64,000 nt of DNA, from assembly GCA_044356325.1 (NCBI GenBank), contig JBIKWJ010000003.1, forward strand, positions 36,749 to 100,748, read 5' to 3'. This DNA is from Minisyncoccia bacterium (GTDB taxonomy: Bacteria; Patescibacteriota; Minisyncoccia; SW-4-49-11). Positions 33,356-63,399 of the stretch are shown here, piece by piece. The position numbers and the translations under genes are program-made. How positions within the stretch are numbered: position 1 is the stretch's first letter; the number at the start of each line of letters is the position of its first letter. A model generated the notes under the pieces. It was not told the origin of the DNA and made no database searches. It saw only the letters and a list, made by a program, of their open reading frames with translations.

Positions 33356-33416
33356 ATTTAAATAATTTCATTTTATTATATCACAAATAGTTTATAGTGC
33401 TAAACTCGGTCTACCA

Positions 33417-33742: not shown

Positions 33743-33760
33743 TAATAGCTTAATTTTTAA

Positions 33761-34777: not shown

Positions 34778-34840
34778 ATTTTGATTTAGTATATGGTTTT
34801 ATTATAACATGGGAAAAATAATTATGAATTAATTAATTAC

Positions 34841-35030
34841 CATCCACCCTCCCCCTTCGGGTACTCCCTCCTAAGGGAGACAAAAGCTCAAGTAACAAAA
34901 TCCACCCCGTCCAGCGAAGCTGTCCACCCCTCAAGAGGGGAATTTAGTACAAAATACAGTCCTCCTCCGTCACCTACGGTGACACCTCCCCCAAGGGAGG
35001 ACAGAAGGGAAGAAGCTCAGTCCACCCTAT
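34841..35030. repeat. GC-rich mosaic hairpin repeat block R7
   Basis: Modules C and D. Confidence 0.75.
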
Positions 35031-35090
35031 TCTATATTTTTTATAAAAGATATGTTATAATAAATATAGGATAAAAAATAATAAACATAT

Positions 35091-35816: not shown

Positions 35817-35822
35817 AAAAAT

Positions 35823-37502: not shown

Positions 37503-37555
37503 AGTTTTTAGATAAAATACTATCAATCATGCTCCGTCCCTCTCATATAAATATA

Positions 37556-37656
37556 GGAGGACAGTGTATTATGTTCCTGCCTACCGCAGGCAGGCCTCAC
37601 TGGTAGCTTGTCGACCATAGGTGGAAGGGGGACCACGTCAGTGGTGGGTGTGGACA
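37556..37656. repeat. GC-rich mosaic hairpin repeat block R8
   Basis: Module B in reverse orientation, then module A. Confidence 0.7.
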
Positions 37657-37684
37657 AACCTAATCTTCTTATAGGAAGATTACT

Positions 37685-38059
37685 TTACAACAAAATCTTA
37701 CTCTTAATAAAATCCTCCAGTATAGGGGTTATACTATTTATAGATTTGAGTACTTCTTCATCAGTAAATCGTAACACAGTAAAACCTAAATTTTCTAAAT
37801 ACCTTTGCCTTATTAGGTCATTTTCATAAATTTCAGGGTGATTATGGCTTTCTCCATCTACTTCAATGATGAGTTTTAATTCTAGACAAATAAAATCTAC
37901 AACATATTTACCTATTGGTCTCTGTCTTCTAAATATAACTCCTAGTTTTTTACCTTTTAATATATATTTCCAGAGACTAGCCTCTGCTTTTGTCATTGAT
38001 TTACGAAGTTTGTGAGCAATGGGTTGTAATTGAGAATTATAATTATTATTTTGTTTCAT
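37685..38059 (-). CDS. DUF559 (Vsr-like endonuclease fold) protein
   Basis: YVVDFICLELKLIIEVDGESH...RQRYLENLGFTVLRF matches the DUF559 core. Confidence 0.65.
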   Translation of the reverse strand: MKQNNNYNSQLQPIAHKLRKSMTKAEASLWKYILKGKKLGVIFRRQRPIGKYVVDFICLELKLIIEVDGESHNHPEIYENDLIRQRYLENLGFTVLRFTDEEVLKSINSITPILEDFIKSKILL

Positions 38060-38095
38060 AGGAAAATATTATTCCTATGGGGGTATTGCTGAGTA

Positions 38096-38320
38096 CTGTC
38101 CACACCCACCACTAACGTGGTTCCCCCTCGCCAGCGAGGGACAAAAAGCTTTGTCCTCCCTTGGGGGAGGTGCCTGCAAGGCGGAGGAGGATATACCTTA
38201 CCAGCTACCTCCTCCGTCGCAAACAGGATTTGCTCCTGTGAAACCTCACGGTTTCCCAAACCTTCCTACACGGGAAAACTCCCGTTTTCCCGACCCCTTT
38301 CCCGGAGGCAGAAGCTTACC
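38096..38320. repeat. GC-rich mosaic hairpin repeat block R9
   Basis: Modules A, D and G, plus the gcttaccagctaccgcctccg module that extends into the 3' end of the DUF2207 gene. Confidence 0.7.
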
Positions 38321-39944
38321 AGCTACCGCCTCCGCCTCCACCAGAGCCACCACCAGCAGAACCTCCACCAGATGAGGCTGATGACATAGTGGAAGATAAT
38401 GAGCTATCTATACTACTGACAAAATCAGTTGGAATAAATACTACTCCATTATTAGAATGATACCAATCTGGATTGGTTGTAATAAGTCCTTCAAAGGCTT
38501 TTGCCCATACTGTTGCCAGCCCAAGAGCAATGGCAAAAGGTAATATTTCAAAAAATATATATTCTTTTTCTTGGAATTGTAATCTATCTTTTTCTGCTAC
38601 TCTAATATATTCTTCTAGTCCTAGAATATGTTCTAATACTCTTGTCCCCTCTTCTGTTCTCTTTGGGGCATAAAATGCTGAGATAGCGGCCAATATTGCT
38701 AGAATATTTAATGATATTGCAATCCATCCTGAAATAAACACCCCAATAATAAAAGCTAATATGAATAGGCCTACTACTATGACACCTAATATACTTCTTG
38801 GTATATTGGGATTTATTGCAAAATATTGTTTCACCTCATCTCTATATATGCTCTTATATATTATATTAAATTTATCCCCTATATGCTCATCTGTTAAATC
38901 TTTCGTAGTGACAGTTTTTCTCTTACCTTTAAATAATATACCTAATAATTCCTGCTCAAATGGCTTTAATGTTTTACCCTTTGGTATATCTTTGAGGTCA
39001 AATTGAAATATCCCATTACTAAACCATTTCTTCTCTTCTATTTGGGTTATATTGAGTATGCCTTGTTGCGCAAGGGATATAATAGTAGCAGATATCTCTA
39101 CTGGGGTTGAATAAGTGTTCTTGAACCGTATAATTGCAGCTGGGCTCATACCCTTTGGTGCATCATATTGTCTTACTATAGGTGTGCGGATTTTGGGGTC
39201 TCTTGCCCAAGCATTCCAGACAAAATATAATATTAAACTTCCTATGATGAGAATTACCCCCGCAATACTCTTATATATAAGCTCTTGATTCTCTTCCCAC
39301 CAAGTTGGAGGGGTAAGTGTACCAAGTGGAAATCCTATTGCAAAAGTTAACCCTTCTCCCGCTGCAAGTGATTGATTAGATGTTATCTCAATAGTACGAG
39401 CATTTGTCCAAGTAATAGTACAGTCTTGCGCTTTTGATGAAGACATACCGGTATAACAATATAATTTGTCCCCGACTTTGTCTTGTAAATCTTCTGGTAA
39501 TAGAATTGTTGCGGAAGCTTGCTCTATGGGGACTTCCCAGTCAGTTCCTGTTATTTGCCAATATAATTCATCTCTATCTTGGAGTTTTTCGATCACGCCC
39601 TTTACTTGATAGGTAATACTATATTGATTGAGGCCTGTAAGGTATATATCTGCATCTCCTATTTTGATATTAATTTCTCCACCCCGACTAATTTCCTGAG
39701 TTGCCGCCCTCCCATTTTGTAATGCCTGTATATCCCCTTGTATATTAATTCCTTTGAGGGGAATTGTCCGATAAATTCCACGCCTTTCATTTTCTCCAAA
39801 ATCATAGGATATATTCTCCTCTACTTGTATACTCCTATCAGTATTGACTGTAATAGTACTCTTAAAATCTCGTATAGTCTCGGCTGATACCAATACTGGG
39901 AAAATATATAAAACTATTGCGATCAGAGCATATTGAGCTTTCAT
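38316..39944 (-). CDS. DUF2207-like membrane protein with a C-terminal Gly-rich tail
   Basis: Signal peptide, a roughly 200-aa extracytoplasmic domain, TM helices and a C-terminal SGGGSAGGGSGGGGGGSW tail. Confidence 0.5.
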   Translation of the reverse strand: MKAQYALIAIVLYIFPVLVSAETIRDFKSTITVNTDRSIQVEENISYDFGENERRGIYRTIPLKGINIQGDIQALQNGRAATQEISRGGEINIKIGDADIYLTGLNQYSITYQVKGVIEKLQDRDELYWQITGTDWEVPIEQASATILLPEDLQDKVGDKLYCYTGMSSSKAQDCTITWTNARTIEITSNQSLAAGEGLTFAIGFPLGTLTPPTWWEENQELIYKSIAGVILIIGSLILYFVWNAWARDPKIRTPIVRQYDAPKGMSPAAIIRFKNTYSTPVEISATIISLAQQGILNITQIEEKKWFSNGIFQFDLKDIPKGKTLKPFEQELLGILFKGKRKTVTTKDLTDEHIGDKFNIIYKSIYRDEVKQYFAINPNIPRSILGVIVVGLFILAFIIGVFISGWIAISLNILAILAAISAFYAPKRTEEGTRVLEHILGLEEYIRVAEKDRLQFQEKEYIFFEILPFAIALGLATVWAKAFEGLITTNPDWYHSNNGVVFIPTDFVSSIDSSLSSTMSSASSGGGSAGGGSGGGGGGSW

Positions 39945-45092: not shown

Positions 45093-45224
45093 CCCCCACG
45101 AGGGGGGCTTGGTAAAAATATAAAAGAGCTTGAATAGTATACCGATTTTAGATAATTATGTCAATATTACTTTTTTATATTCCCCTCTTGAGGGGTGTCA
45201 TCTTTGATGATGGGGTGGAATGTC
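45093..45224. repeat. GC-rich mosaic hairpin repeat block R10
   Basis: CCCCCACGAGGGGGG hairpin and module C (TTCCCCTCTTGAGGGGT..GGGGTGGA). Confidence 0.6.
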
Positions 45225-47366: not shown

Positions 47367-48203
47367 ATGGTTTCTTTCAAATTACACAATGGTTTTGATC
47401 GGCTTAAGATGTATAATGGATTGATGGGGGCTCTCCACTTCTTCCAAGCTGGATTAATGTTATATATTTCTAAAGAATATTTACTACCTGTATTTACCCA
47501 TTATCTCAAATTTGATGCTGCAAATCGTAGCGCTATACCTATGCCAGTAGAAGAAAAGTTATTTGATGTAAATGTTGGACCAGCTGTTGCTTTATTCTTA
47601 TTATTATCAGCATTAGCCCATTTTATTACAATTTTACCTAATGTGTATCCTTGGTATATCAAAAATCTCAAGAAGCATATTAATGTGATCAGATGGTATG
47701 AATATGCTCTATCATCATCAATAATGATTGTAATAATAGGATTGTTGGTTGGTATTTATGACTTCTCTACTCTCTTATTACTCTTTGGACTTAATGCCGC
47801 TATGAATCTTTTTGGTCTTGTGATGGAGCAAATCAATCAAGATAGAAAAGATGTTAATTGGCTTCCATATATATTTGGATGTATTGCAGGTATAATCCCT
47901 TGGATTGTTATTTTCCTTCATTTCCAAGGAGCTCTTGCTAATGTCGATGTAGATGTGCCAAGTTTTGTATATTGGATTGTATTCTCATTATTTGCAGTAT
48001 TCAATGTATTTGCTATTAATATGTTCCTTCAATACAAAAAAGTTGGGCCTTGGAAATCATATGTGTTCGGAGAGAAAATCTATGTTTTCCTATCCCTATT
48101 TGCTAAAACATTATTAGCTTGGCAGGTATGGTCAGGAACTCTTAGAGGTCGTGAGAATGACGTATCATCTGCTATTAATCATATTATTAACTTAATTTCA
48201 TAA
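47367..48203 (+). CDS. Heliorhodopsin (seven-TM retinal protein, inverted topology)
   Basis: Diagnostic motifs IRWYEYALSSSIMIV, FGCIAGIIPWIV, VPSFVYWIVFSLF and FLSLFAKTLLAWQVWSGTL (Schiff-base Lys). These closely parallel heliorhodopsin 48C12 as recalled from memory. 278 aa. Confidence 0.8.
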   Translation: MVSFKLHNGFDRLKMYNGLMGALHFFQAGLMLYISKEYLLPVFTHYLKFDAANRSAIPMPVEEKLFDVNVGPAVALFLLLSALAHFITILPNVYPWYIKNLKKHINVIRWYEYALSSSIMIVIIGLLVGIYDFSTLLLLFGLNAAMNLFGLVMEQINQDRKDVNWLPYIFGCIAGIIPWIVIFLHFQGALANVDVDVPSFVYWIVFSLFAVFNVFAINMFLQYKKVGPWKSYVFGEKIYVFLSLFAKTLLAWQVWSGTLRGRENDVSSAINHIINLIS

Positions 48204-51079: not shown

Positions 51080-51169
51080 ATAATTTTATGACCTATTGGT
51101 ATTATTATATCATAAAAACATGATATTTAGAATTGTATGTATGGTTTATTTCTGCAAAGTGAGCTTTTT

Positions 51170-51360
51170 GTCCTCCTTCGGAGGAGCTTTAAGTCCCTCC
51201 TATATTTATTTAGGAGGGGGTGGCATGGAGTGCCGGAGGTGGATGTCCGTAGAGTCGGCGACCCCGCCGACATTGGTTTCGTAGAGGCGACCTCTCAGTC
51301 CCTGCATTATCGTAGCGGAGGGTTTATCCCTCCACACGCAACCAATTCCGCTAATTACCC
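51170..51360. repeat. GC-rich mosaic hairpin repeat block R12
   Basis: Modules H, A and F. Confidence 0.7.
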
Positions 51361-51843
51361 TTGACAAAATTAGAGAAATGTGCTATATATCAAACGTTCC
51401 TATCGAGAATCATTATGAGCACTGAATTGGTTGAAATTACTCTTTTGATGAGGCAATCTTTCTTTGACCTTCTATCGTTTATTGAAGAAACGTATGGCCA
51501 GCCAAGAGAAGAAGCAATTCATGGATCTGTAGGTCTTTATGCCCGAAATAGAATTGAATCAAAAAAAGGAAATCGGTTAGCTTCAATACGCCATAATAAT
51601 ACTATTGTGAGAGCATATGAAGAGATTCAGAGTAATAACCTCACCCAATTAATTGAACTTAGACTTTGTGTACATGAATCTTTTGCTGAGGCGCTACAAT
51701 TGCTTGCATATAATGATAGAAAAACAAGGCCAGAAATACTACATAAATCTGTAAACCTATATGCAGAATATATGGCTGATTTAAAAAAAGGATATAGATT
51801 AGCTTCAATAAGATCTGATAATTCTATTGAAACAATCTATTAA
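51361..51843 (+). CDS. Hypothetical protein with two tandem repeats of about 62 aa (possible tandem ribbon-helix-helix)
   Basis: The repeats ELVEITLLMRQSFFDLL...GNRLASIRHNN and QLIELRLCVHESFAEAL...GYRLASIRSDN are clearly homologous. The real start may be the internal Met (MSTELV...). Confidence 0.4.
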   Translation: MTKLEKCAIYQTFLSRIIMSTELVEITLLMRQSFFDLLSFIEETYGQPREEAIHGSVGLYARNRIESKKGNRLASIRHNNTIVRAYEEIQSNNLTQLIELRLCVHESFAEALQLLAYNDRKTRPEILHKSVNLYAEYMADLKKGYRLASIRSDNSIETIY

Positions 51844-51936
51844 GATGTATCTTCATACATCTTCCAACCCTGGTAACCCAGGGTTTTTTCTTTTTCATAC
51901 AATCTACTTTTGTTTCAAAACACAAACACTATAGGC

Positions 51937-52298
51937 TAGTGAGGGGGCGTGGAGTTCTGTCTCCCTTTGGAGGGAGTACCCGTAGGGGGAGGGTGGATTT
52001 GTTTTTAACATATTAAATAATTAAAACTCTATCCACCTCCGACCTGACGGCCACCTCCTCCAAAGGAGGACATGATAGAATTAGAACCCTCCGCTACAAA
52101 ATACCGTCCTCCTCCGTCACCTTCGGTGCCACCTCCCCCACCTGTCTGCCATAGGTAGAAGGTAGGACAGTATTTCTGTCCCTGCCTGCCGTAGGCACGG
52201 CCTCGCTGGCGAGGGTGCCCGCAGGGTGGGTGTGGACTGAGCTTAGATTCCCCTCTTGAGGGGTATCAGGCTTACCTGACGGGGTGGAGGTAATTTTT
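51937..52298. repeat. GC-rich mosaic hairpin repeat block R13
   Basis: Modules H, D, B, A and C. Abuts the hisS stop codon. Confidence 0.75.
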
Positions 52299-53589
52299 AC
52301 TCAATCTCCCCCAAATCTTCAAGCAATACAATTTCCTGTTCTCCTGATTCCATATTTTTGACGAGTACTTCTCCGGCTTTCGCCTCATCACCTCCAAAGA
52401 ATATAGCCTCCGTATAGCCTTTACGATTGGCATATTGTAAAGCTTTTTTAAAATTGGTAATTTCTGGATACACGTCAAAAGCTATTCCCTGCTCATCTCG
52501 GAGGGCAACAATTGATTTGATATCATCTGTTACAGTCTTATCATTTAATAAAAATACTCCTATTTTAGTAGTATCTCCATATTGAATTGATTGAAACCAC
52601 TCTTGCTCCCGCAGAATTCCAAATAGACGACTTACTCCAATAGAGGCTCCAAATCCGGTAATAGGAGTATCAATATAATGGGATACGAGATTATCATATC
52701 GCCCTCCTGAACACATACTCCCAAAAGACTCCAACCCTGCCAGGAAACTCTCGAATACTGTTCCGGTATAATAATCCTGACCTCTTACTATAGAGATATC
52801 TATACTATAATCTTTAATTTGGAATGAATCTAAATACTGAATTAACTGAGTAAGCTCATCAATTCCCTCTTGATACAAAACATTATCGATATTCTGTTGC
52901 TGTAATAATTCTATTATTTCTTGATTATTTTTCCCATTTTCAAATAAACTTAATAATGTATCTATTACTAAATCTGGTGTTTGTATATCCCTGAGAGCTT
53001 GTATCCAATCTGCCTCCGATAATTTAGCTTTTTTATCTACAATTCTCAGAATTGAAGCTATATCTGTAATACTATATGAATCCAATAATCCTGCAAGAAT
53101 TTTACGATTGCTAATTTTGAAAGTAATAGCTGGTAATTCTAATATATCAATAGTATTCTGAATTACTGATAATATCTCAGCCTCAGCCAATCTACTATTA
53201 TTGCCCAGTATATCAATATCCGCCTGATATAATTCTCGGTATCGCCCCTTTTGTGGTTTTTCAGCTCGCCAGGATTTACCAATTTGATATATTTTTGCGG
53301 GTAATACTATATTGCGATTATGCTCAGCTATGTAGCGGGCTAATGGCACAGTCAAATCAAAGCGTAAACTCAAATCTCTATCCCCTTTTTGAAAACGATA
53401 TATTTCTTTATCTAATTCTCCTCCGGCTTTGGCTAGAATTACCTCAGAATATCCGATAGAAGCTGTTTCAATAGGAACAAATCCTGCATGTTCATATTCT
53501 TCTCGAATGGTATCCAATATGTAATTAAATTTCACCTGCTCTTCAGGAGTATATTCAATAAATCCAGATGGTAATTGGAATTTTGGCAT
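52297..53589 (-). CDS. hisS: Histidine--tRNA ligase
   Basis: Class II aaRS motifs plus HisRS-specific RYIAEH and SMCSGGRYDNL. Confidence 0.9.
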   Translation of the reverse strand: MPKFQLPSGFIEYTPEEQVKFNYILDTIREEYEHAGFVPIETASIGYSEVILAKAGGELDKEIYRFQKGDRDLSLRFDLTVPLARYIAEHNRNIVLPAKIYQIGKSWRAEKPQKGRYRELYQADIDILGNNSRLAEAEILSVIQNTIDILELPAITFKISNRKILAGLLDSYSITDIASILRIVDKKAKLSEADWIQALRDIQTPDLVIDTLLSLFENGKNNQEIIELLQQQNIDNVLYQEGIDELTQLIQYLDSFQIKDYSIDISIVRGQDYYTGTVFESFLAGLESFGSMCSGGRYDNLVSHYIDTPITGFGASIGVSRLFGILREQEWFQSIQYGDTTKIGVFLLNDKTVTDDIKSIVALRDEQGIAFDVYPEITNFKKALQYANRKGYTEAIFFGGDEAKAGEVLVKNMESGEQEIVLLEDLGEIE

Positions 53590-54652: not shown

Positions 54653-55177
54653 ATGCGTGAATCATTTGAACAAATGCTAACAGGAGGTCATCCCAACTCA
54701 CTGGGACGAACATTAGAAGTAGTAGAATTAATACTTCAAGATAAAAAAAGAGTAGCTGAATTATTAGACACCTATTCATCATCAGATGAAGTAGTAAGAC
54801 TGCGTATTTCTAATGCCCTAAAACGCATATGCAAAGAACATCCAGACTGGATATATCCATACACCGATATATTACTCTCAAAAATTGCTAAAATTAATCA
54901 AGCATCCACCCAATGGACTTTAGCTACCCTATTTCGATTATTATCATCCTCCTTAACTACCGATCAAAAAGACCTTGCCATACAACATCTCAAACATAAT
55001 CTGGATACTCATAGTGATTGGATTGTAATCAATACCACTATGGAAACATTATTCACTTGGGGCAAAGATAATCCCCCATTAGCTGAATGGCTTATTCCAA
55101 GACTTAAAAAATTCCAACAAGATACCCATAAATCAATATCCGGAAGGGCAACTAAATACCTTATAGCCTTATCTTGA
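54653..55177 (+). CDS. HEAT-repeat protein, possibly DNA alkylation repair (AlkD-like)
   Basis: All-alpha repeat composition. Weak resemblance only. Confidence 0.3.
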   Translation: MRESFEQMLTGGHPNSLGRTLEVVELILQDKKRVAELLDTYSSSDEVVRLRISNALKRICKEHPDWIYPYTDILLSKIAKINQASTQWTLATLFRLLSSSLTTDQKDLAIQHLKHNLDTHSDWIVINTTMETLFTWGKDNPPLAEWLIPRLKKFQQDTHKSISGRATKYLIALS

Positions 55178-55367
55178 CTATATCTCTCTTATTCGGTACA
55201 ATATACAAGTACCTTTCAAATCTAATTCCGCGATAGCTTTACCTCAAAGCTGTCCCTTCTCGAAAAGAAGCAAGGGAATTAGAAAAAAAGTTAAAATCAG
55301 GACAAGGAAAAGAATATCTGAAATCAATTATGATTAAGAAATTCAATCTCAATTCTGACTAGATAAT

Positions 55368-55442
55368 TCCGCGATAGCTCAGCGGTAGAGCAGTCGACTG
55401 TTAATCGATTGGTCGTAGGTTCGAATCCTACTCGCGGAGCCA
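55368..55442 (+). tRNA. tRNA-Asn (anticodon GTT)
   Basis: Hand-folded cloverleaf. Acceptor stem UCCGCGA/UCGCGGA, anticodon loop CUGUUAA, encoded CCA. Confidence 0.9.
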
Positions 55443-55454
55443 AAACAAAATAAT

Positions 55455-55482
55455 GCCAGGTTTTTACCTGGTTTTATTTTTG
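55455..55482 (+). terminator. Rho-independent terminator after tRNA-Asn
   Basis: CCAGG-ttttta-CCTGG hairpin plus TTTTATTTTT. Confidence 0.55.
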
Positions 55483-55518
55483 TTATTGCTTTTGAGAAAG
55501 TAGGATGAGAAGTTAAGT

Positions 55519-55549
55519 AAAAAAAACCCCCCAGCAATGGCGCTGGGGG
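55519..55549 (-). terminator. Rho-independent terminator for the high-GC gene
   Basis: On the minus strand, CCCCCAGC-gccatt-GCTGGGGG followed by TTTTTTTT. Confidence 0.6.
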
Positions 55550-55616
55550 AAATAGAATGGGTGACAGTATAACCCTTAGGCGTCGCGAGTACTCTCGCGT
55601 GAGGTGTTGTTCCCTC

Positions 55617-55958
55617 CTACTTCCCCGCGGGCTTGAACAGCGGGTGCTGCCTGATGTCGTTGGTGAGGTGCAGGAGTAGTGAGAACATCGCTAGGGACAA
55701 CTGAGAAGCATTACCTTTCGATTTCACTTCATCGCAGTAGCACTCAACCTCCACTCCTGGGATCCTCAAGGCGTCCAAGACAGCTTTCACCTGGGCGTGC
55801 ATCTCCTGCAAGTAGTTTAGCCGGTCCGCTTCATCCACGAACAGGGTCTTTCGGACTGAGAGGGTGAGTGGTGAGCCCCCCTGCGGTATCACGACAACTT
55901 TGTCCCAATCGGTCGACCCTTGTGATGTAGCTGTGTCGAGGGTGGTGGTAGTGGTCAT
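55617..55958 (-). CDS. Hypothetical protein encoded by a compositionally foreign (about 55% GC) segment
   Basis: 113-aa ORF with a codon composition unlike the flanking 28-30% GC DNA. Has its own GC-rich terminator. Sits immediately 3' of tRNA-Asn. Confidence 0.45.
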   Translation of the reverse strand: MTTTTTLDTATSQGSTDWDKVVVIPQGGSPLTLSVRKTLFVDEADRLNYLQEMHAQVKAVLDALRIPGVEVECYCDEVKSKGNASQLSLAMFSLLLHLTNDIRQHPLFKPAGK

Positions 55959-56061
55959 AACTGCTGTCTAGGAATTTCCTTAGACATGAAGGTCTTGGTG
56001 ACTATATCATATTTATTTCATTTTGTCAATCTAATATAACTAAAGATATTTGTGAGGATTC

Positions 56062-56093
56062 TCCCAAACTATAGTGAGAAGGTAGTGGGGTAA
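56062..56093 (+). repeat. 32-bp direct repeat copy 1 (TCCCAAACTATAGTGAGAAGGTAGTGGGGTAA)
   Basis: 31/32 identical to 62332..62363. Confidence 0.7.
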
Positions 56094-56169
56094 TAATTTG
56101 ACAAAAATATATAAATTACATAGACTGTAACTAATTAGTAAACAAAGTCTATTCTCTCTTATACTATTT

Positions 56170-56901
56170 ATGTTTAACTTTTCTAAGACCAATAAGAACC
56201 CCGAGGGACTTATTAGATTTTATTCTTTAGAGAGTTTTTGGTTACAGAGTTTTTCACAAGAAGAAAAAGTATATATTGCAGAAACCTATCAACCGATAGG
56301 AACAAATAAAAAAGAGTCGCTTATAAAAGGATCTATTCTGGATTCAAGCCAGACAGCATCAATGTTTCTCTCAACATTAGCAGGTTGGTTTGATAATCCA
56401 AGAGATAGAAGTATAGCTGTAAGGCTTATTAGAAAATCTATAGACCTAGCTAAAGAAGGGGGTGAAAATTCATATATAGATTTAGATTATGCATTATCCT
56501 CGGCAATAACTATTCTATATAAATTAAGAGATGATGAAAAAATATTAGAAGAGGTAATTAACTTATGTTATTCTCAAATTTCAATCGCTAAAGACGTTTT
56601 CCCAAAACTATTAGTATTTTTCAATCCTCCCTATAATAAAAATGACTTTGATCCGAACACAAAAGTTTGGCATTCAAAAAGACAAGAGTATGTTTTGTGG
56701 AAAGACTACAATGAAGTAGCCGTAGATAAAATAATTCCAGGACATACAGGCTATACTCAATTAGTAATTATCTTAAAGAAACAGAAAAAATATAGCGAGA
56801 TAATTAATTTATGTGAACGGGCTAAAAAAGAGGGTTGGTCGGGTGATTGGGATAAAAGAATAGAATTTGCTAAAAAGCAATTAAACAAATTAAATAAGTA
56901 A
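56170..56901 (+). CDS. Hypothetical protein
   Basis: 243-aa ORF downstream of the 32-bp repeat copy 1. Confidence 0.4.
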   Translation: MFNFSKTNKNPEGLIRFYSLESFWLQSFSQEEKVYIAETYQPIGTNKKESLIKGSILDSSQTASMFLSTLAGWFDNPRDRSIAVRLIRKSIDLAKEGGENSYIDLDYALSSAITILYKLRDDEKILEEVINLCYSQISIAKDVFPKLLVFFNPPYNKNDFDPNTKVWHSKRQEYVLWKDYNEVAVDKIIPGHTGYTQLVIILKKQKKYSEIINLCERAKKEGWSGDWDKRIEFAKKQLNKLNK

Positions 56902-57192
56902 TCCGTTATAAGAAAGTGGTGGGGGGAAGGAAAAGTCAAGGAACAAAGGCACCACTTTAGAGTTTGGAAGGTTTAGAGATAGAATCTTATCAAATTCATC
57001 TCGCTTATTTTTGTATGCACTTTCGTCAAAGCTGTATTTTTTTATAATCTTAAAAGCTTTTCTAGCACAATAATCCTCTAGACGCTTAACCTGAGCGGGT
57101 AAAGAATTACCAGCTTCCCTTTGCTCTTCAGTTGATACTCGTGCTAATATTATTGCTTTCATAGTTTTAAAATATTGTTTGTAGACGTTCAA
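56890..57192 (-). pseudogene. Truncated serine recombinase (resolvase catalytic-domain N-terminal fragment)
   Basis: MKAIILARVSTEEQ...SLPAQ..RLEDYC matches a serine-recombinase N-terminus with the catalytic Ser. The frame collapses after about 75 aa and the HTH/DNA-binding domain is missing. Confidence 0.5.
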
Positions 57193-57278
57193 CTAGAGAC
57201 AATTTAATTTGTAGACGTTTAAATCTATTTTAACCTCTACAAATAGATTTGTCTATGTTTTAACATTCACAATTTTAT

Positions 57279-58373
57279 TTACCCTGTAATAGATATTAAC
57301 TCAGGAAATACATATAAACTAGGTTTACTACCTTTACCCTTTCTTAAAAGTTTAATTATTTTAGCTTCTTCTAATTTCTGAATTACCTGACGAGAATAAG
57401 GAGGCCTTACATTAGTTTTTTGTGAAAATTGAGTAGAAGTAAAATAGGGATAAGAAAAGAGAAAATCAAGAATATCAACAGCATATTGAGATTTCGTAAC
57501 GTTTCGTATCTCCTCTTTTTTTTCTCCATATAAAAACATAATATCTTTTGCCTTTTCAATGTTTAGTTCTGACTGCTCCTTAACAGCTTTTAAAAAATAG
57601 ATGATCCAAGAATCCCAATCACCATTAGATGATATCGCGTTTAATTTAGAGTAATAAACTTCTCTATCTTTTTCAAAATATGCACTCAAATAAAACATTG
57701 GTGTCGAAAGAACTTGCTTATAATGAAGAAATAGGGGGAGTATAATTCTACCTAAACGACCATTACCATCCCCAAAAGGATGAATAATTTCAAATTGAGC
57801 ATGTATGATAGCAAGTTGTACAAGAGGATCTTTTTCTTGGGAGTGAATATATGTCTCAAGATTTGCCATTAAGTCATTTATATCCTGAGGTGCAGGAGGT
57901 ACATAACTAGCTTCTTCAATTGTTGTTCCATCACTACCTATAAAAACTTGCCAATCTCTATACTTTCCAATTACTTTAGTTTGAGACCTTACTTCACTAA
58001 GAAGAATCTTATGGATTTCTTTTAATAGTCTTCCTGTTAAAGGAGTTTCTTTCATTTTCTCTATAGCAAAATACATAGATTTCCTATAGTTTAGAACTTC
58101 AAGAATATCTGCTTTTTTTTCATCCATTTCCATCGGATCTGCTTCATATTCAAGAACTTCTTCAAGAGTAGCTTGTGTTCCTTCAATCTTAGAAGATATC
58201 ACAGCTTCTTGAGTGGTTAATGGAGCCAGCAATACACTCGGATTAGGTATCCCTTGTAACAAACCATCAAATTTTGAAAGCCTATCTCTCGCATCACCAA
58301 TTAATGAGATATATTTTACCCAATCAAGATTTTCTAAAGGTAACGTTTTAGGTACAAATGGAGTTTTAGACAT
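57279..58373 (-). CDS. Fic-family protein (canonical AMPylation motif) with C-terminal wHTH
   Basis: HPFGDGNGRLGR motif. 364 aa. Confidence 0.8.
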   Translation of the reverse strand: MSKTPFVPKTLPLENLDWVKYISLIGDARDRLSKFDGLLQGIPNPSVLLAPLTTQEAVISSKIEGTQATLEEVLEYEADPMEMDEKKADILEVLNYRKSMYFAIEKMKETPLTGRLLKEIHKILLSEVRSQTKVIGKYRDWQVFIGSDGTTIEEASYVPPAPQDINDLMANLETYIHSQEKDPLVQLAIIHAQFEIIHPFGDGNGRLGRIILPLFLHYKQVLSTPMFYLSAYFEKDREVYYSKLNAISSNGDWDSWIIYFLKAVKEQSELNIEKAKDIMFLYGEKKEEIRNVTKSQYAVDILDFLFSYPYFTSTQFSQKTNVRPPYSRQVIQKLEEAKIIKLLRKGKGSKPSLYVFPELISITG

Positions 58374-58381
58374 AGTTATAA

Positions 58382-58558
58382 TTATTTAATCTTTACATTA
58401 TTAAGGAAATCATCGAACTCTTGCTTCTCTATTCGAAACTCTTTACCTATCTTATAAGCCTTTAATTTTCCTGCATTTATATATCTATATATAGTCATAA
58501 CATTAAGTTTGAGCTTATCAGATATCTCTTTTGCTGTGTAAAATTCTTGTGTGTTCAT
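58382..58558 (-). CDS. Excisionase-family (MerR-like) HTH DNA-binding protein; 58 aa, below the ORF-track cutoff
   Basis: Hand translation: MNTQEFYTAKEISDKLKLNVMTIYRYINAGKLKAYKIGKEFRIEKQEFDDFLNNVKIK. Xis/AlpA-like pattern (..v.TiyR.i..G.l.a.kiG...ri....l..fl). Confidence 0.5.
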   Translation of the reverse strand: MNTQEFYTAKEISDKLKLNVMTIYRYINAGKLKAYKIGKEFRIEKQEFDDFLNNVKIK

Positions 58559-58602
58559 ATTGTTTGTGATTACTTATATTATACTTTACTTTTCTTAACA
58601 AG

Positions 58603-58974
58603 TCAATTTTTATTATAGATCTGTAAAACCTTTTCATTCTCCTCTATATCCAGAGGAATAAAGTCTTTTAATTGCTTCTCTATCTCTTTTATCCACGGAG
58701 GATATAGATCCCCTTCCATTATATTAGCAACTTTTTTCAACCTATCCATAAGCCTATACCAAGTTCTTTGACTACAATGTGGTTCAATTAAACTTCTGAG
58801 ATCCCTAATTCCCCCATCTTCTTTCATAAGTACAATCATCCCAACCAACATAACGGCTTCTGTGGGTTTAGCTCTTATCGACAGCGTTTGAAGTAGTACA
58901 TCTTGAGGCTTATCCTTAGATATGAAAAAGATTTTATTTCCTTTCATAATAAGATTCTCCCAATACCATATCAC
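58603..58974 (-). CDS. Hypothetical protein
   Basis: 123-aa ORF. Confidence 0.35.
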   Translation of the reverse strand: MIWYWENLIMKGNKIFFISKDKPQDVLLQTLSIRAKPTEAVMLVGMIVLMKEDGGIRDLRSLIEPHCSQRTWYRLMDRLKKVANIMEGDLYPPWIKEIEKQLKDFIPLDIEENEKVLQIYNKN

Positions 58975-59063
58975 TATGTTATGACATATATTACGATGTA
59001 TCTCATCTTATTCAGTTATTGTATTATTGACATCTATAATATCGCATGATAAAGTGAGTTTAT

Positions 59064-59768
59064 ATGAAAAAATCTCCTATTAATTCTCCAGAAACCCCTA
59101 CCCCTTTACGCTTTGCAATACTTGCTACTGATATTGTCCTTTTTACTATATTTGATGGGGCTTTATATGTCAGACTTATGACAGTCAATCGTCCCCCACA
59201 TTTTGTACATCAGCCTGGATTACCTGGAGGACTTATTCGTCCTGATGAAATTGCAGAAGAAGCAGCTCGCCGTATCATTGATGAAAAAGGATATATTAAT
59301 TCAAAAAAAGTATATTTAGAACAGTTATTTACATTTAGTAATATTAATCGTGATCCACGTGGACGAGTTGTTGCTGTTGGCTATATTGGATTAATTTCAG
59401 AAGATAAGTTAACTGCTAAAGAAAAAGATAGTACGGGGGCCACTTATTGGTCACCAGTACATACTGCTAAACATTTAGCATATGATCATGATGAAATTCT
59501 CGCAACAGCATTAAAGAGATTAGCTTCTCGCGTCCATTATACTACCTTAATTGGACAGCTACTTCCTCGTGAATTTACGCTTACTGAATTAGAGAGAGCT
59601 TTTGAAAGTATATTAGGAAATGATCTTGATAGACGTAATTTTCGTAAAAAAATACTCAAGCTTGATATTGTAAAATCTACTGGTAAAAAAAGAGCCAATG
59701 GAGCTTTTCGACCTGCCGAATTATATCGTATGACTTCAAAAAAAGTTGAAGAAATAGAAGTCCTATAA
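59064..59768 (+). CDS. nrtR: NrtR-type regulator (Nudix-like N-terminal domain plus C-terminal winged HTH)
   Basis: Nudix-fold N-terminus with a degenerate Nudix box. C-terminal roughly 90-aa wHTH. Positioned immediately upstream of nadM-nadV, the classical NrtR regulon arrangement. Confidence 0.65.
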   Translation: MKKSPINSPETPTPLRFAILATDIVLFTIFDGALYVRLMTVNRPPHFVHQPGLPGGLIRPDEIAEEAARRIIDEKGYINSKKVYLEQLFTFSNINRDPRGRVVAVGYIGLISEDKLTAKEKDSTGATYWSPVHTAKHLAYDHDEILATALKRLASRVHYTTLIGQLLPREFTLTELERAFESILGNDLDRRNFRKKILKLDIVKSTGKKRANGAFRPAELYRMTSKKVEEIEVL

Positions 59769-59868
59769 AAGAATTATATCCATAATCCTTTTATATATTT
59801 GACAATACTTATTGTATTTGATACACTATCTAAGTTAACACTTCTTTTTTTAACTTTACTAAATGTAT

Positions 59869-59890
59869 TAGTTACACTAAGTAGTGTTAA
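59869..59890. promoter_or_regulatory. Imperfect inverted repeat TAGTTACACTAAGTAGTGTTAA, candidate NrtR operator
   Basis: GTTACAC / GTGTTAA half-sites 25 bp upstream of nadM. A third TTAACAC half-site lies at about 59834. Confidence 0.3.
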
Positions 59891-59914
59891 TGTTCTTTCA
59901 CAAATGGTAATCCT

Positions 59915-60826
59915 ATGGTAGTTCTTCCCCCCTCATCTCTTGGAGTGGTAGTTGGTCGCTTTCAAGTGGCAAAACTACATCCAGGACATCATCGAATTAT
60001 TGAGGCAGCTATGTCTAAGCATGAGAGACTTCTTATTGTTCTTGGTAGTAGCCGTGGATTTGCCTCAGATAAAGACCCCCTTTCTTTTGCAGCCAGGGCT
60101 CAGATGATTGCTCAAGAATATCCAAATGCGATTATTCTTGAGCAATTTGATCATCCAAGTGACTATATTTGGTCTCGGCAACTTGATCATCTTATAGCTG
60201 GTGTTGCAAGAAATTCGATAGTAACACTTTATGGTGGCCGAGATTCATTTATCCCCTATTATAGTGGTTTTTATCCAATAATCACTATTCCTAATTACAG
60301 GGATTATAATGGGACAAAGTATCGCACCATAATTCGTGACCGTATTGGTAAATCCACCGCCTGGAGACAGGGAGTTATTCATGCAGCACAAAATCGCCCA
60401 CCCCAAACCTATAGCACGGTTGATATTACAGTTATAAGACCTGGTCAGGTTTTACTTGCGGAAAAATATCAGGATGAAGGTAAGTTTCGATTTTTCGGAG
60501 GATTTGTGGATAACACAGACATCTCTGATGAAGCTGCGGCTAAGCGAGAATTACGAGAAGAGGCTGGTAGTTTTGAGGTTGCTGATTGGCATTATCTTGG
60601 ATCTACCCGTATTACTGACTGGCGTTATAAAAAAACGCGAGACGGTATTATGACTCGTTTTTTTGTAGCTCGCTACATTTTTGGGCGACCTGAACCTGGT
60701 GATGATATCGATAAACTTCATTGGGTATCCCTTGATACCTTTAAGGAAAATCTTATCCCAAGCCATATCCCCCTAGGAGAAATGCTCCTGCAATTTATTC
60801 AGAACAACCCCAAACACTGTTTCTAA
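59915..60826 (+). CDS. nadM: Bifunctional NMN adenylyltransferase (NadM-type) / Nudix ADP-ribose pyrophosphatase
   Basis: N-terminal VVVGRFQVAKLHPGHH (the archaeal-type (H/T)xGH cytidylyltransferase motif). C-terminal Nudix box GGFVDNTDISDEAAAKRELREEAG. Confidence 0.8.
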   Translation: MVVLPPSSLGVVVGRFQVAKLHPGHHRIIEAAMSKHERLLIVLGSSRGFASDKDPLSFAARAQMIAQEYPNAIILEQFDHPSDYIWSRQLDHLIAGVARNSIVTLYGGRDSFIPYYSGFYPIITIPNYRDYNGTKYRTIIRDRIGKSTAWRQGVIHAAQNRPPQTYSTVDITVIRPGQVLLAEKYQDEGKFRFFGGFVDNTDISDEAAAKRELREEAGSFEVADWHYLGSTRITDWRYKKTRDGIMTRFFVARYIFGRPEPGDDIDKLHWVSLDTFKENLIPSHIPLGEMLLQFIQNNPKHCF

Positions 60827-60836
60827 GGAGATTATC

Positions 60837-62255
60837 ATGCCCCAACAAAACACCCTCAATCTGCGCGGCATCATGAACACCATTCTTCTTTCCGATAGCT
60901 ACAAATTTACTCATTGGAAACAATATCCACCCAATACTCAAAAGGTGTATTCCTTTTTTGAGAGTCGTGGTGGAGTTTTCCCAGAAGTTACATTTTTTGG
61001 CCTTCAATACTATCTCATGGAATATCTTGTTGGAAAACGAGTTACTCTGGAAGATATAGCTGAGGCAAAAAATGATTATGCTCTCCATTTCGGTAATGAT
61101 AAGCTATTCAATGAAAATGGTTGGAAGAGAATCGTAGAAGTGCATAATGGGAAATTACCTGTACGCATTTCTGCAGTTCCTGAGGGATTAACCGTCCCCA
61201 CAGGAAATGTACTCATGACCATTGAGAATACTGACCCGGAGTTGCCATGGATTACTAATTACCTCGAGACTATTCTCTCCCTAGTATGGTATCCAACGAC
61301 CATTGCCACTCAAAGCCGGCAAATGCGTAATGCAGTTTATCAGTCTCTCCTAGAGACGGGTGACCCTGCAGGCATTGATTTCAAAGTACATGATTTTGGC
61401 TTTCGTGGTTCAACCTCGGTTGAATCGGCGGGCATTGGTGGTATGGCTCATTTAACCGCTTTCTCTGGTAGTGATACCTATGCAGGCATCATTTATGCTC
61501 GCCGTTACTATCAAGAGCCCATGGCGGGATTTTCCATACCTGCAGCCGAACATAGCACCGTAACAAGCTGGGGTAAAGAGCATGAGATAGATTCCTATCA
61601 AAATATGCTCAACCAATTCCCAGAAGGCCTTGTTGCAGTAGTGAGTGATAGCTATGACATTTATCGAGCTTGCTCTGAATTATGGGGGACAAAACTCCGT
61701 GATCAGGTGCTTGCAAGAGATGGTGTACTAGTGATTCGCCCAGATAGCGGAGAACCAGTTGAAGTAGTACTAAAAGTTCTTGAATTACTCGGCCAGTATT
61801 TTGGTAGGAGTAAAAATGATAAAGGCTATTGGGTATTAAACCCCAAAGTACGTATCATTCAAGGAGATGGTATTGACTATCAAATGCTGAGAAAAATTCT
61901 TTTCTCAATAGAGCATGCTGGTTGGTCTGCTGACAATTTGGCATTTGGGTCAGGTGGTGGATTACTGCAAAAGGTTAATCGTGATACACAAAAGTTTGCG
62001 ATAAAAGCCTCGGCTATACTTCGCGACAATACTTGGCACGATGTTCTCAAAGACCCCGTAACTGATCCTGGAAAAAAGTCTAAACCTGGTCGCCTCGCAC
62101 TTATTCATACTGACGGTCATTATCGCACAGTAAGAGAAGAAGAGGCTATCAAGCTTAATACCCCAAATCTATTACAGCCTGTTTTTGAGAATGGGAATCT
62201 CCTTCGAGAAACCACTTTTGCAGAAGTAAGAGATAGAGTTCGTACCATGAACTAG
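60837..62255 (+). CDS. nadV: Nicotinamide phosphoribosyltransferase
   Basis: 472-aa NAPRTase-family protein with GFRGSTSVESAGIGGMAHL. Linked to nadM and nrtR. Confidence 0.8.
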   Translation: MPQQNTLNLRGIMNTILLSDSYKFTHWKQYPPNTQKVYSFFESRGGVFPEVTFFGLQYYLMEYLVGKRVTLEDIAEAKNDYALHFGNDKLFNENGWKRIVEVHNGKLPVRISAVPEGLTVPTGNVLMTIENTDPELPWITNYLETILSLVWYPTTIATQSRQMRNAVYQSLLETGDPAGIDFKVHDFGFRGSTSVESAGIGGMAHLTAFSGSDTYAGIIYARRYYQEPMAGFSIPAAEHSTVTSWGKEHEIDSYQNMLNQFPEGLVAVVSDSYDIYRACSELWGTKLRDQVLARDGVLVIRPDSGEPVEVVLKVLELLGQYFGRSKNDKGYWVLNPKVRIIQGDGIDYQMLRKILFSIEHAGWSADNLAFGSGGGLLQKVNRDTQKFAIKASAILRDNTWHDVLKDPVTDPGKKSKPGRLALIHTDGHYRTVREEEAIKLNTPNLLQPVFENGNLLRETTFAEVRDRVRTMN

Positions 62256-62280
62256 TTAAGTCCCAACTTCATCATACTCA

Positions 62281-62312
62281 CCGGCATACAATATTGTATG
62301 CCGGTATTTTTA
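62281..62312 (+). terminator. Rho-independent terminator after nadV
   Basis: Perfect 24-nt palindrome CCGGCATACAATATTGTATGCCGG plus TATTTTTAT. Confidence 0.7.
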
Positions 62313-62331
62313 TCTAAATTTTCAAAAACTA

Positions 62332-62363
62332 TCCCAAACTATAGTGAGAGGGTAGTGGGGTAA
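62332..62363 (+). repeat. 32-bp direct repeat copy 2
   Basis: TCCCAAACTATAGTGAGAGGGTAGTGGGGTAA. Confidence 0.7.
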
Positions 62364-62429
62364 AGAGATTATATTGTGCTATACTACAAATATAATCTAT
62401 AAGCAAAACTTTTATCAAAATATAAAATT

Positions 62430-63242
62430 ATGAAAGAAGAAGATGCATTAAATCGAATACAGTCCCTTTTGTTATCAAATCAAGATAACATCTCTAGTAT
62501 AGAAGACCTCAGAAACATTATCAAAAGTCCATTTACTAAAGAAAACCCCCTTATCCTTATTGATAATCATGAAATAGTACAAGAACAAATTAAATCTAAT
62601 ATTTCTCATATACAAAGCTATTTGGATGAGCTCTTCCCATTTATATTGAAAATAAAAGAAGATTACATTGAAGATATTACCGAAGAGACTACTTTTTGTG
62701 CAGTTTACTTACTAATGAGATTTACCGTACAAAATTGGAGTTCTGTACTATCTCTCGCAAAGCAAGGTGATTATGGAAGCCTTCCGTTAATTCGTATATC
62801 AAATGAAGCAGTAGACCTAGCAACTTTATTTGTTTTTGATCATCACAAAGGAGAAGATCACAATCTCATGAAATGGTTTGGGGGTAAAATTATTAAACAT
62901 GAAAAATACAGAAATAAATATCCAAAATTTTTTAATAAAGAAGGCCAAGAAGCTACCCTGTTAAGCAACGCTCTAAATTACCTACATCAAACAGAGAGTT
63001 TAGCTACCCATCCCTCTTATATTAACATGATACAGAATATCAGCCCCCTCACAGAAGACTTTGATACCTCAGGTATGGTACAATATTCTCGCGTATATGA
63101 TGGACTAAGTTATGTGCTGGAAGCAATAAGAATCATGAATACTAGCTTAAAACTTGTTTATAAAATTCTTCTCAAAGACCTCCAAGGATGTGAACAGCTA
63201 AGTAAAATTAAATATAGATATGACACTCCTACTGTAGAATAA
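62430..63242 (+). CDS. Hypothetical protein
   Basis: 270-aa ORF downstream of the 32-bp repeat copy 2. Confidence 0.4.
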   Translation: MKEEDALNRIQSLLLSNQDNISSIEDLRNIIKSPFTKENPLILIDNHEIVQEQIKSNISHIQSYLDELFPFILKIKEDYIEDITEETTFCAVYLLMRFTVQNWSSVLSLAKQGDYGSLPLIRISNEAVDLATLFVFDHHKGEDHNLMKWFGGKIIKHEKYRNKYPKFFNKEGQEATLLSNALNYLHQTESLATHPSYINMIQNISPLTEDFDTSGMVQYSRVYDGLSYVLEAIRIMNTSLKLVYKILLKDLQGCEQLSKIKYRYDTPTVE

Positions 63243-63265
63243 GCATCCTACATCCCCCACTCAAA

Positions 63266-63296
63266 GGTTCGAACGTCGTCTAGCTCGCGGAGCCAA
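63266..63296 (+). repeat. tRNA-Asn 3'-end fragment (GGTTCGAA...CTCGCGGAGCCAA), candidate attR
   Basis: The 13-bp CTCGCGGAGCCAA is identical to the tRNA-Asn 3' end at 55431-55443. The T-loop GGTTCGAA is also retained. Confidence 0.6.
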
Positions 63297-63399
63297 CTCT
63301 CTTTAAATAGTTTTTTTAGCTTTTGTTTGGTTTACCATATAATATATTTGTTCGTATTTATTAAATATGTTACATTACATATAATACTACATAAATACT

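Follow-up and report, generated by a model that had tools for sequence, protein, structure and literature searches.

A variable array of small modules downstream of tRNA-Asn in a freshwater Paceibacteria genome, with an NAD salvage operon among its cargo

We have analyzed a 64-kb stretch of DNA (the window, part of contig JBIKWJ010000003.1) from a freshwater Paceibacteria genome, and in particular the 7.9 kb that follow its tRNA-Asn(GTT) gene and end in a second copy of the tRNA 3' end. This interval is accessory DNA, variable even between close relatives. A first-pass annotation had taken it for one integrated island of ~7.9 kb with a phage-derived nicotinamide adenine dinucleotide (NAD) salvage operon; judged by homology to relatives, it is a mosaic of about five modules. 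We consider it probable that the interval belongs to a hypervariable tRNA-anchored array, built by serial site-specific insertion of integrase-less units and by homologous reshuffling. Bacteria of the candidate phyla radiation (CPR, Patescibacteria) have minimal genomes, and little is known of how they gain and lose accessory genes; at this locus a compact recurrent architecture shuffles cofactor salvage, candidate defence genes and orphans between close relatives.

The interval 3' of tRNA-Asn

The window comes from a freshwater metagenome contig of 109 kb (JGI Ga0335038_0000027), and all sequences compared with it are metagenome assemblies. The host was placed by the relatives of its histidyl-tRNA synthetase (HisRS), encoded 2 kb upstream of the interval: the nearest are Parcubacteria/Paceibacteria metagenome-assembled genomes at 90%, 79% and 65-71% identity, and the host is thus a freshwater member of this CPR group, with ~35% GC. 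Two of the loci compared, L013 and L096 (a 341-kb ENA scaffold), come from sister species and L020 from the next relative (HisRS 79%); the other array loci are L014, L017, L019 and L102-L109. The left flank is conserved in the relatives at the level of both proteins and DNA (HisRS, Bcp, YgjP-like, hyp174 and tRNA-Asn), and the right flank is semi-conserved (SOUL, NAD_binding_10, DUF4336 and aldehyde decarbonylase). Between the flanks the content of every genome is different, also where the genes of the flanks are 90-99% identical. Because an identical gene order was assembled independently in at least six metagenome samples, the arrangement in the window is taken as real and an assembly chimera was rejected.

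The last 13 bp of tRNA-Asn, CTCGCGGAGCCAA, have exactly two occurrences in the 64 kb (55431-55443 and 63284-63296). Scanning 100 shuffled sequences with one mismatch allowed gave 0 matches, and a longer pattern with 3 mismatches revealed no decayed extra core copies in the window. The direct repeat reported by the first-pass annotation is therefore confirmed, it is not scattered over other sites within the window, and the evidence supports it as a true mark of site-specific insertion into the tRNA-Asn 3' end. The same annotation had pointed to a retained T-loop, GGTTCGAA, at 63266-63273. This sequence is indeed not a chance occurrence, and it forms part of a longer element, a pseudo-tRNA 3' half of ~50 nt (..ATATCCCCCACTCAAAGGTTCGAAcnttGTCyArC followed by the core) that has a 5-nt insertion relative to the real T-arm and is conserved in 32 distinct copies over related contigs. 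In the IMG/VR database the tRNA-Asn 3' end was found in two large viral contigs only.

The modules of the interval are listed below. The core is the repeated tRNA 3' end, R1, R2 and R3 are alternative terminator hairpins, and A5 and A3 are the two parts of a pseudo-tRNA arm; GC3 is the GC content at third codon positions.

55368-55442, + strand: tRNA-Asn(GTT), intact, intron-less, CCA encoded; anchor of the array (ARAGORN; Rfam RF00005, 74 bits)
55431-55443, + strand: attL core, the tRNA 3' end
55444-56093: module 1 (R1, high-GC gene, A5), of the same layout and size as small units in L013 and L096
55455-55472, + strand: R1 terminator hairpin after the tRNA, one of three alternatives in relatives
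55527-56029, - strand: cargo of module 1, the high-GC orphan gene unit
55550-55527, - strand: terminator of the high-GC gene
55617-55958, - strand: high-GC gene, 113 aa (GC 0.556, GC3 0.708, z = +5.4 vs 68 window open reading frames, ORFs)
56029-56001, - strand: promoter-like TTGACA-17-TATAGT of the high-GC gene
56062-56093, + strand: A5 copy 1, ..AAACTATAGTGAGaaGGTAGTGGGGTAA, end of module 1 (31/32 bases as in 62332-62363)
56096-56914, + strand: module 2, hyp243 (coding sequence 56170-56901) with its own promoter (56098-56126)
56915-59013: module 3, a recombinase remnant, an HTH_17-Fic gene pair and hyp123
59014-62363, + strand: module 4, the NAD salvage cassette nrtR-nadM-nadV with terminator and A5 copy 2
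62332-62363, + strand: A5 copy 2 (31/32 bases as in copy 1)
62364-63247, + strand: module 5, hyp270 (coding sequence 62430-63242), DUF5677-related
63248-63296, + strand: A3 pseudo-tRNA 3' half with the attR core (63284-63296)
63297-63335, + strand: R3 terminator-like sequence, which directly follows tRNA-Asn in L017 and L107
63400-64000, + strand: gene of the SOUL haem-binding family, running off the window

The internal junctions, at 56093/56096, 56914, 59014, 62363 and 63248, are each set by homology to a different relative. Module 2, whose protein hyp243 corresponds to PHROG 22434, matches metagenome contig L106 with 81.6% nucleotide identity over exactly this span, within another array. 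Module 3 was not found in the relatives' loci retrieved, only in assemblies with proteins identical to those of the window, and it stands in place of an A3-core-R2-nadR-pnuC stretch of the sister species. Module 4 is 96.8% identical in nucleotides to L013 over 59014-62352, and hyp270 sits between an A5 and an A3 that adjoin after nadV in L013 and L096. Since SOUL is itself followed by degenerate A5/A3 motifs, located in the full contig between SOUL and NAD_binding_10, the array extends past the right boundary of the first-pass annotation, and the SOUL unit looks like an older cassette.

A single phage or satellite element of ~7.9 kb that entered tRNA-Asn once with the NAD genes and then lost its integrase would account for the one attL/attR pair in the window, for the recombinase remnant and the excisionase-family gene between the two sites, and for the presence of NadV with a nicotinamide mononucleotide adenylyltransferase (NMNAT)/Nudix protein, a combination common as phage cargo (2019 phage records contain a NadV homologue). 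We nevertheless regard such an element as very unlikely. Besides the junctions to different relatives, a 32-bp A5 repeat lies inside the interval, the nad unit of the sister genomes is bounded by core repeats of its own, and NadV and NadM are Parcubacteria-like rather than phage-like. The expectation of one contiguous unit missing whole from relatives also failed, as these share sub-segments independently and no empty site was found among them. Nor is atypical composition island-wide: only the 113-aa gene deviates, and the others fall within +/-1.5 standard deviations of genome GC3. Comparison of the island DNA with phage and plasmid collections matched only the tRNA and short conserved stretches of NadV and Fic, and IMG/VR contained nothing similar to the island.

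Two observations concern the anchor gene and its surroundings. In several related Paceibacteria, tRNA-Asn(GTT) is interrupted directly 3' of the anticodon by a group I intron (Rfam RF00028, 73-87 bits; L013 7773-8324, L014 7769-8067 and L018 761-1059, all on the - strand, and also L105 and L107); that of L013 contains an ORF for a 120-aa HNH endonuclease (7968-8330), and the tRNA-Asn of the window is without an intron. On the left side, window positions 54653-55460 correspond to L020 6961-8272, where hyp174 and the tRNA are 96-98% nucleotide-identical. The synonymous divergence (dS) of hyp174 from L020 is 0.063, compared with 0.55 for HisRS, which lies 2 kb away and is only 82% identical; by this measure, the low value for hyp174 indicates recent inter-species homologous exchange around the tRNA.

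Arrays in related genomes

In at least 15 related contigs the DNA 3' of tRNA-Asn is an array of co-oriented modules that consist of a core, one of the three terminator hairpins (R1-R3), cargo and a pseudo-tRNA arm (A5/A3). In exact-motif scans of the relatives the core, TCGCGGAGCCA(A), recurs invariably on the tRNA strand and is in each case followed by R1, R2 or R3. Most cores are preceded by A3, ..ATATCCCCCACTCAAAGGTTCGAAcattGTCCAAC, which is usually preceded in turn by A5, AAACTATAGTGAG..GGGGTAA; before some cores of the relatives this place is taken by TypeB, a GC-rich element of 129 nt. L096 has ~9 cores, which delimit units of 180 bp to 5.2 kb from tRNA-Asn to SOUL. This array is uninterrupted, in the order tRNA, R2-TypeB-core, R3-gene-A5A3-core (twice), R2-nadR-pnuC-nrtR-nadM-nadV-A5A3-core, R2-TypeB-core, further units and SOUL, and several of the small units have their own promoter-like TTGACA/TATAxT and terminator. 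The other array loci have 2-7 cores each, without exception on the strand of the tRNA. In the window itself there are 2 cores and 2 A5 motifs, and within its 64 kb the array motifs are confined to the hotspot. An A3-pattern scan of metagenomes returned 8 contigs, all with the same co-oriented motifs and two of them beginning at tRNA-Asn beside YgjP/Bcp; the A3 motif had 0 matches in IMG/VR.

Nearly every combination of a left arm (tRNA, A3 or TypeB) with a right arm (R1, R2 or R3) is found, and the two meet exactly at the core. This reassortment is the pattern that recombination within approximately the last ten tRNA bases would predict. Because cores after A3 vary at bases 2-3 (TCC/TGG/AGG/TTC) while CGGAGCCA is common to nearly all cores (two listed A3 cores deviate), the crossover would lie 3' of the variable bases. 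The cargo is exchanged as well: other arrays contain the hyp243 module and the high-GC gene, each as a unit of its own. According to Pfam and JGI gene tables, array ORFs in the relatives include M16 peptidase, MsrA/MsrB, methyltransferase, CYTH, radical SAM, S9 peptidase, lectin, JmjC, Nudix and glycosyltransferase genes and many orphans, and the small cassette ORFs are GC-enriched too (GC 0.43-0.56, GC3 0.39-0.71). In Pfam scans and gene tables the array units are without recombination or transfer genes of their own; no integrase was found in any of the ~15 arrays examined, nor elsewhere in the window (over 1-18 kb, among ORFs of at least 150 aa only).

What is shown directly is the anatomy of the arrays, their comparison between relatives, and the values for composition and identity; the recombination chemistry and the enzyme that we propose are inferred, as follows. 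Small units of ~0.18 to 5 kb, often comprising one gene together with its promoter and terminator, would insert by site-specific recombination within the last ~10 tRNA bases (..GCGGAGCCAA). An incoming unit would bring a replacement tRNA 3' end and a terminator hairpin (R1, R2 or R3), and its far end would carry the pseudo-tRNA arm (A5/A3, or TypeB in relatives). Each insertion would restore the tRNA and push the earlier 3' end downstream, leaving co-oriented core repeats. The recombinase would act in trans, because no unit encodes a working one. Homologous recombination between shared motifs would then delete, duplicate and swap units, and the array of the window would have been reworked into its five modules.

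The repeats might alternatively be terminator-like or tRNA-like punctuation, multiplied locally through tandem duplication and homologous recombination, perhaps following DNA uptake; the region would then be no more than a recombination hotspot. The R elements are all terminator-like hairpins, L013 contains a tandemly duplicated unit of ~730 bp, no integrase was found, and dS is mosaic (hyp174 98% identical to L020, HisRS 82%; NadM 0.025), which points to frequent homologous exchange. We still think this origin unlikely, for it does not explain why every unit ends in a tRNA-oriented acceptor 3' strand regardless of cargo direction, why the core is the exact point at which left and right arms reassort, or why unrelated cargo of foreign GC content lies between the repeats.

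The boundaries of A5 bear on yet another explanation, an integron-like capture at an attC-like A5/A3 junction with the tRNA-derived core as a passenger of the first capture. A5 invariably ends ..GGGGTAA with a sharp 3' boundary, beyond which lies either A3 or unrelated DNA (the latter twice in the window, and also in L096, L103, L105 and L107), and hyp270 is placed exactly between an A5 and an A3 that adjoin in the sister genomes. However, there is no intI-like gene near any array, and the predicted A5/A3 hairpin (AGTGGGG/CCCCACT) is inconsistently maintained, being present in many copies and not in all. The R type moreover correlates with the TypeB sequence variant, which points towards a crossover at the core, and capture at A5/A3 seems to us very unlikely. 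The reverse strand of A5 (56062-56093 and 62332-62363) also contains CTCACTATAG, which we take to resemble a T7-class phage promoter core, probably by coincidence; a promoter role was set aside, as the orientation of the cargo is inconsistent.

TypeB begins with the reverse complement of the tRNA-Asn T-arm, ends with CCTACTCGCGGAGCCA, and is near-invariant over species whose HisRS differ by 30%. Together with an R hairpin it makes up a 180-bp unit without an ORF, present in up to three copies per array and absent from the window (L096 4925-5075, 11608-11758 and 15840-15990; L013 6755-6925 and 7473-7700; also L014, L019, L102, L106-L109 and L112). Its predicted fold is stable, about -41 to -53 kcal/mol, but shows 0 compensatory pairs; TypeB may be a recombination site or an RNA gene, the latter role being unproven. 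When the island, the entire window and six relatives were scanned with Rfam, nothing matched A5, A3, TypeB or the high-GC segment; only tRNAs were identified, plus the group I intron in relatives.

Serial insertion at the tRNA with subsequent reshuffling thus remains the reading that we favour, and several points weigh against it. The window holds two cores only, and the case for an array leans largely on relatives, in whose individual metagenome contigs dense repeats can be mis-assembled. The array is tied to no recombinase, and neither an excised circle nor an empty tRNA-Asn site was found among the relatives examined. A5 and A3 are separable and have sharp boundaries of their own, and may represent a second recombination site or another cassette register. 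The nad unit, finally, is stable over three sister species, and its mobility is historical at best.

A broader proposal is that Paceibacteria possess a tRNA-anchored, integron-like capture platform, in which an unlinked recombinase inserts self-contained single-gene cassettes serially; we put it forward tentatively, as doubtful on present evidence. It is an equally tentative suggestion that the cassettes of such a platform would end in a pseudo-tRNA site of ~50-90 nt and that many would be GC-rich orphans. If the proposal is true, these tiny-genome episymbionts would have one locus set aside for the exchange of accessory functions, among them defence and the salvage of NAD precursors. Should the in-trans recombinase be found, the system would provide a tractable new mechanism of cassette capture and a marker for tracking strains in freshwater time series. 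Cassette-like units may also occur outside the tRNA-Asn array, as in the case of hyp142 (51415-51843, in the region 51361-51950), which comes with a promoter and a terminator of its own and, after these, an A5-like aacactataggctagtgaggggg at ~51925-51947. The hyp142 unit is present in L020 and absent from L013 and L096.

Cargo genes and other features of the window

The NAD salvage cassette occupies most of module 4, and the first-pass gene calls for nrtR-nadM-nadV are upheld by Pfam and NCBIfam. Its parts are as follows.

59016-59036, 59809-59829 and 59860-59880: candidate NrtR operators
59027-59055 and 59799-59827: predicted promoters
59064-59768, + strand: nrtR (NrtR_WHD, 84 bits)
59915-60826, + strand: nadM (cytidylyltransferase-like, i.e. 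NMNAT, and Nudix Pfam domains)
60837-62255, + strand: nadV (NCBIfam PRK09198, 620 bits vs a cutoff of 405; NAMPT_N and NAPRTase)
62280-62305: terminator

NadM has the motifs GRFQ..HPGH and REx2EE, and its NCBIfam equivalog scores (at most 60 bits vs cutoffs above 350) are far below the cutoffs; by these scores it is a divergent member of the family. One candidate operator lies upstream of nrtR and two upstream of nadM, overlapping both promoter-like sites, and they fit the rule of a 21-bp palindrome with a GT-N7-AC core given for NrtR (Rodionov et al. 2008, PMC2330246). The operators upstream of nadM are conserved in relatives with NadV 77% identical (L093 and L095), one being a perfect palindrome, TTAGTGTAAgtgTTACACTAA. 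From what is known of these families, NadV would make nicotinamide mononucleotide from nicotinamide and phosphoribosyl pyrophosphate, the NMNAT domain of NadM would make NAD while its Nudix domain would recycle ADP-ribose, and NrtR would repress both promoters until ADP-ribose accumulates. On its gene content the unit is an ordinary cellular operon, apparently of type II nicotinamide salvage. No other NAD genes were seen within the window (in the part 1-18 kb, among ORFs of 150 aa or more).

That these genes came from a phage was a tempting inference, which is corrected here. The nearest relatives of NadV are three near-identical members of the clade, followed by proteins at 71-82% and then by more than 100 at 62-70% identity. 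Those of the latter that have source names all belong to the Parcubacteria group (Kaiser-, Campbell-, Lipton-, Yonath- and Pacebacteria), and identity to Parcubacteria ranges over 62-98%. The phage records with a NadV match are all below 60%, the best at 53%; the best IMG/VR match, to a giant-virus metagenome-assembled genome, is also 53%, and NadM has only five phage matches, at 37% identity or less. The compositional signal of transfer that had been anticipated is missing as well, since GC3 of the three genes (0.145, 0.284 and 0.343) is within the genome range (0.262 +/- 0.082). This evidence points to an operon native to the lineage and recently inherited with the locus.

The operon is found at the same locus in two sister species, with dS like that of the flanks or somewhat below. 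In the comparison of the window with L013, dS is 0.23-0.47 for the flanks and 0.18, 0.025 and 0.15 for nrtR, nadM and nadV; with L096 it is 0.14-0.29 for the nad genes and 0.24-0.54 for the flanks. These values point to common ancestry in the three species with some recent homologous exchange. In L020 the operon is absent from this locus. In Paceibacteria with NadV 77-78% identical, the trio is embedded in core genes, with a giant PG_binding_1 protein on one side and ABC, S20, RuvA and Mur genes on the other, and no tRNA or array motifs were found beside it in these more distant genomes. The nad unit of L096 has core-R2 at its left end and A5-A3-core at its right end. Judged from these maps, the nad unit is built like an array cassette, and it has clearly been relocated within the phylum.

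The nad unit of L013 and L096 also carries nadR and pnuC on its left. These genes, pnuC and a nadR-like gene for uptake and salvage of nicotinamide riboside, lie directly upstream of nrtR (L013 4488-6168; L096 6440-8120). With the pnuC-nadR stretch replaced by hyp243, the recombinase remnant, the HTH_17-Fic pair and hyp123, the window lineage seems to keep nicotinamide salvage only, while the sister species have the nicotinamide riboside route as well.

Module 3, which stands in that place in the window, contains these features.

56890-57192, - strand: small serine recombinase remnant, N-terminal catalytic region with the motif ARVSTEEQ (Pfam Resolvase positions 1-58/145)
57279-58373, - strand: Fic gene (Fic_N and Fic), SoFic-type
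58382-58558, - strand: HTH_17/excisionase-family gene, 58 aa (HTH_17/TIGR01764)
58606-58578, - strand: promoter-like site ahead of the HTH_17-Fic pair
58603-58974, - strand: hyp123, no family match

The truncated serine recombinase described in the first-pass annotation is indeed a remnant, of ~100 aa, that matches only the positions of Resolvase given above. Among the best 120 of its 250 homologues, which come from CPR and Dependentiae, lengths reach 150-175 aa and never exceed 175 aa, with the catalytic domain only; none of these 120, many of them from short contigs, is full-length, and none is array-linked. The island ORFs scanned and the JGI gene tables gave no match to Phage_integrase or Recombinase.

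A gap of 8 bp separates the end of the HTH_17 gene from the Fic gene downstream, and a strong promoter-like site lies ahead of the pair. The excisionase-family domain of HTH_17, noted in the first-pass annotation, is real, but the implied excisionase role is left without an integrase partner. Because no integrase is present and the gene is co-transcribed with Fic, as this arrangement suggests, it is more likely a regulator. The Fic protein was called a canonical toxin, and it does have the Fic_N and Fic domains and the canonical motif HPFGDGNGRLGR (HxFx(D/E)GNGRxxR); it also has an N-terminal inhibitory motif of its own, SSKIEG, and is not half of a toxin-antitoxin pair. We take it to be a class II Fic protein. 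Its match to the PADLOC SoFic model (PDLC03963) is 382 bits over positions 7-357/361, which makes it a candidate defence gene, putatively an auto-inhibited AMP-transferase of a type listed as anti-phage. It resembles the SoFic single-gene defence system in this full-length match, in the Fic motif and in the N-terminal inhibitory motif, and differs in being preceded by the small HTH_17 gene.

The 113-aa gene of module 1 has the 55% GC (0.556) and the terminator of its own (55550-55527, - strand) that were originally ascribed to it. Its description as foreign holds for composition, but a donor is not traceable: only six homologues exist among 5.8 billion proteins, and the three with contigs examined are all in the same hotspot of related Paceibacteria. 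The protein aligns like a real protein, and its AlphaFold2 (AF2) model has a mean confidence (predicted local distance difference test, pLDDT) of 76. The hyp270 family has ~110 representatives, with a DUF5677 match in 16 of 42 aligned members, and its AF2 model is confident (pLDDT 90) and all-helical. Neither model has a fold match in the PDB at E<=0.001, and no relatives of hyp243 or hyp270 were found in IMG/VR.

Elsewhere, the window holds further defence- or toxin-like accessory genes: a second Fic-domain gene at 24746-25816, and PemK-family toxin, DUF3800, DUF1016/YhcG and DUF559 genes within 24746-27768 and 33761-38059. A heliorhodopsin gene is located at 47367-48203 (Pfam PF18761, JGI gene table). 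GC-rich (50-66%), hairpin-rich intergenic repeats with modules of 30-75 bp are dispersed over at least 12 sites in both orientations (20851-21000, 24391-24750, 25921-26160, 26821-27060, 27931-28290, 33391-33750, 34831-35040, 37531-37680, 38071-38430, 45175-45219, 51151-51360 and 52021-52320). They are also present in relatives at other positions, have no Rfam match, and show no sequence relationship to the high-GC gene.

Comparison with known systems

Taken one by one, the NAD operon, the Fic gene and the tRNA-linked repeat are nothing unusual, and literature searches brought up no arrays of this kind in Patescibacteria. The nad unit resembles NrtR-regulated nadM-nadV salvage (PMC2330246) in its three predicted functions, in an NrtR with Nudix-like and winged-helix parts, and in operators that overlap the promoters. 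NadV and an NMNAT/Nudix protein are also paired in phages, presumably including vibriophage KVP40; the window genes differ from such pairs in belonging to the Parcubacteria clade, with the best phage matches at 53% (NadV) and 37% (NadM).

The arrays share with integrons the serial, mostly single-gene units that end in a conserved site-like element, the rapid turnover and the orphan ORFs. They differ in having no intI or attI, in the tRNA anchor, in cassettes that have their own promoter and terminator and lie in both orientations, and in a terminal element that is a pseudo-tRNA half and probably not attC. No intI tyrosine recombinase was found by the array; the neighbours of the tRNA there are hyp174, YgjP-like, Bcp and HisRS. 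On the whole the likeness to integrons is one of cassette scale only.

The closest precedent is the array of ssrA islands in Dehalococcoides, together with the integrase-less, att-flanked cis-mobilizable elements (CIMEs). CIMEs are flanked by att sites, have no recombination or transfer genes and accumulate in tandem by accretion at the 3' end of tRNA genes, as in the ICESt1/ICESt3 elements of Streptococcus (PMC5704250). The units described here are alike in all three respects, but no parent integrative and conjugative or integrative and mobilizable element with an integrase was found, and the units are often of single-gene, cassette scale.

The ssrA islands of Dehalococcoides are tandem, with 20-bp repeats of the tmRNA 3' end and a conserved motif beside each; they involve CcrB-like and small serine recombinases, and 15 of them, without an integration module, were proposed to be cis-mobilizable elements moved by accretion (McMurdie et al. 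2011, PMC3146451). Here the units insert at tRNA-Asn in a host that belongs to the CPR, and they are much smaller, at 0.18-5 kb, often consisting of one gene. Many units there and all units here are without an integration module; serine recombinases are implicated there, and here none of the ~15 arrays has such a module and the window has only the 100-aa recombinase remnant. Both systems are tandem arrays 3' of a single small-RNA gene, with co-oriented repeats of its 3' end, 11-13 bp long here and 20 bp in Dehalococcoides; just upstream of the repeat lies a conserved motif, and the content is strain-specific.

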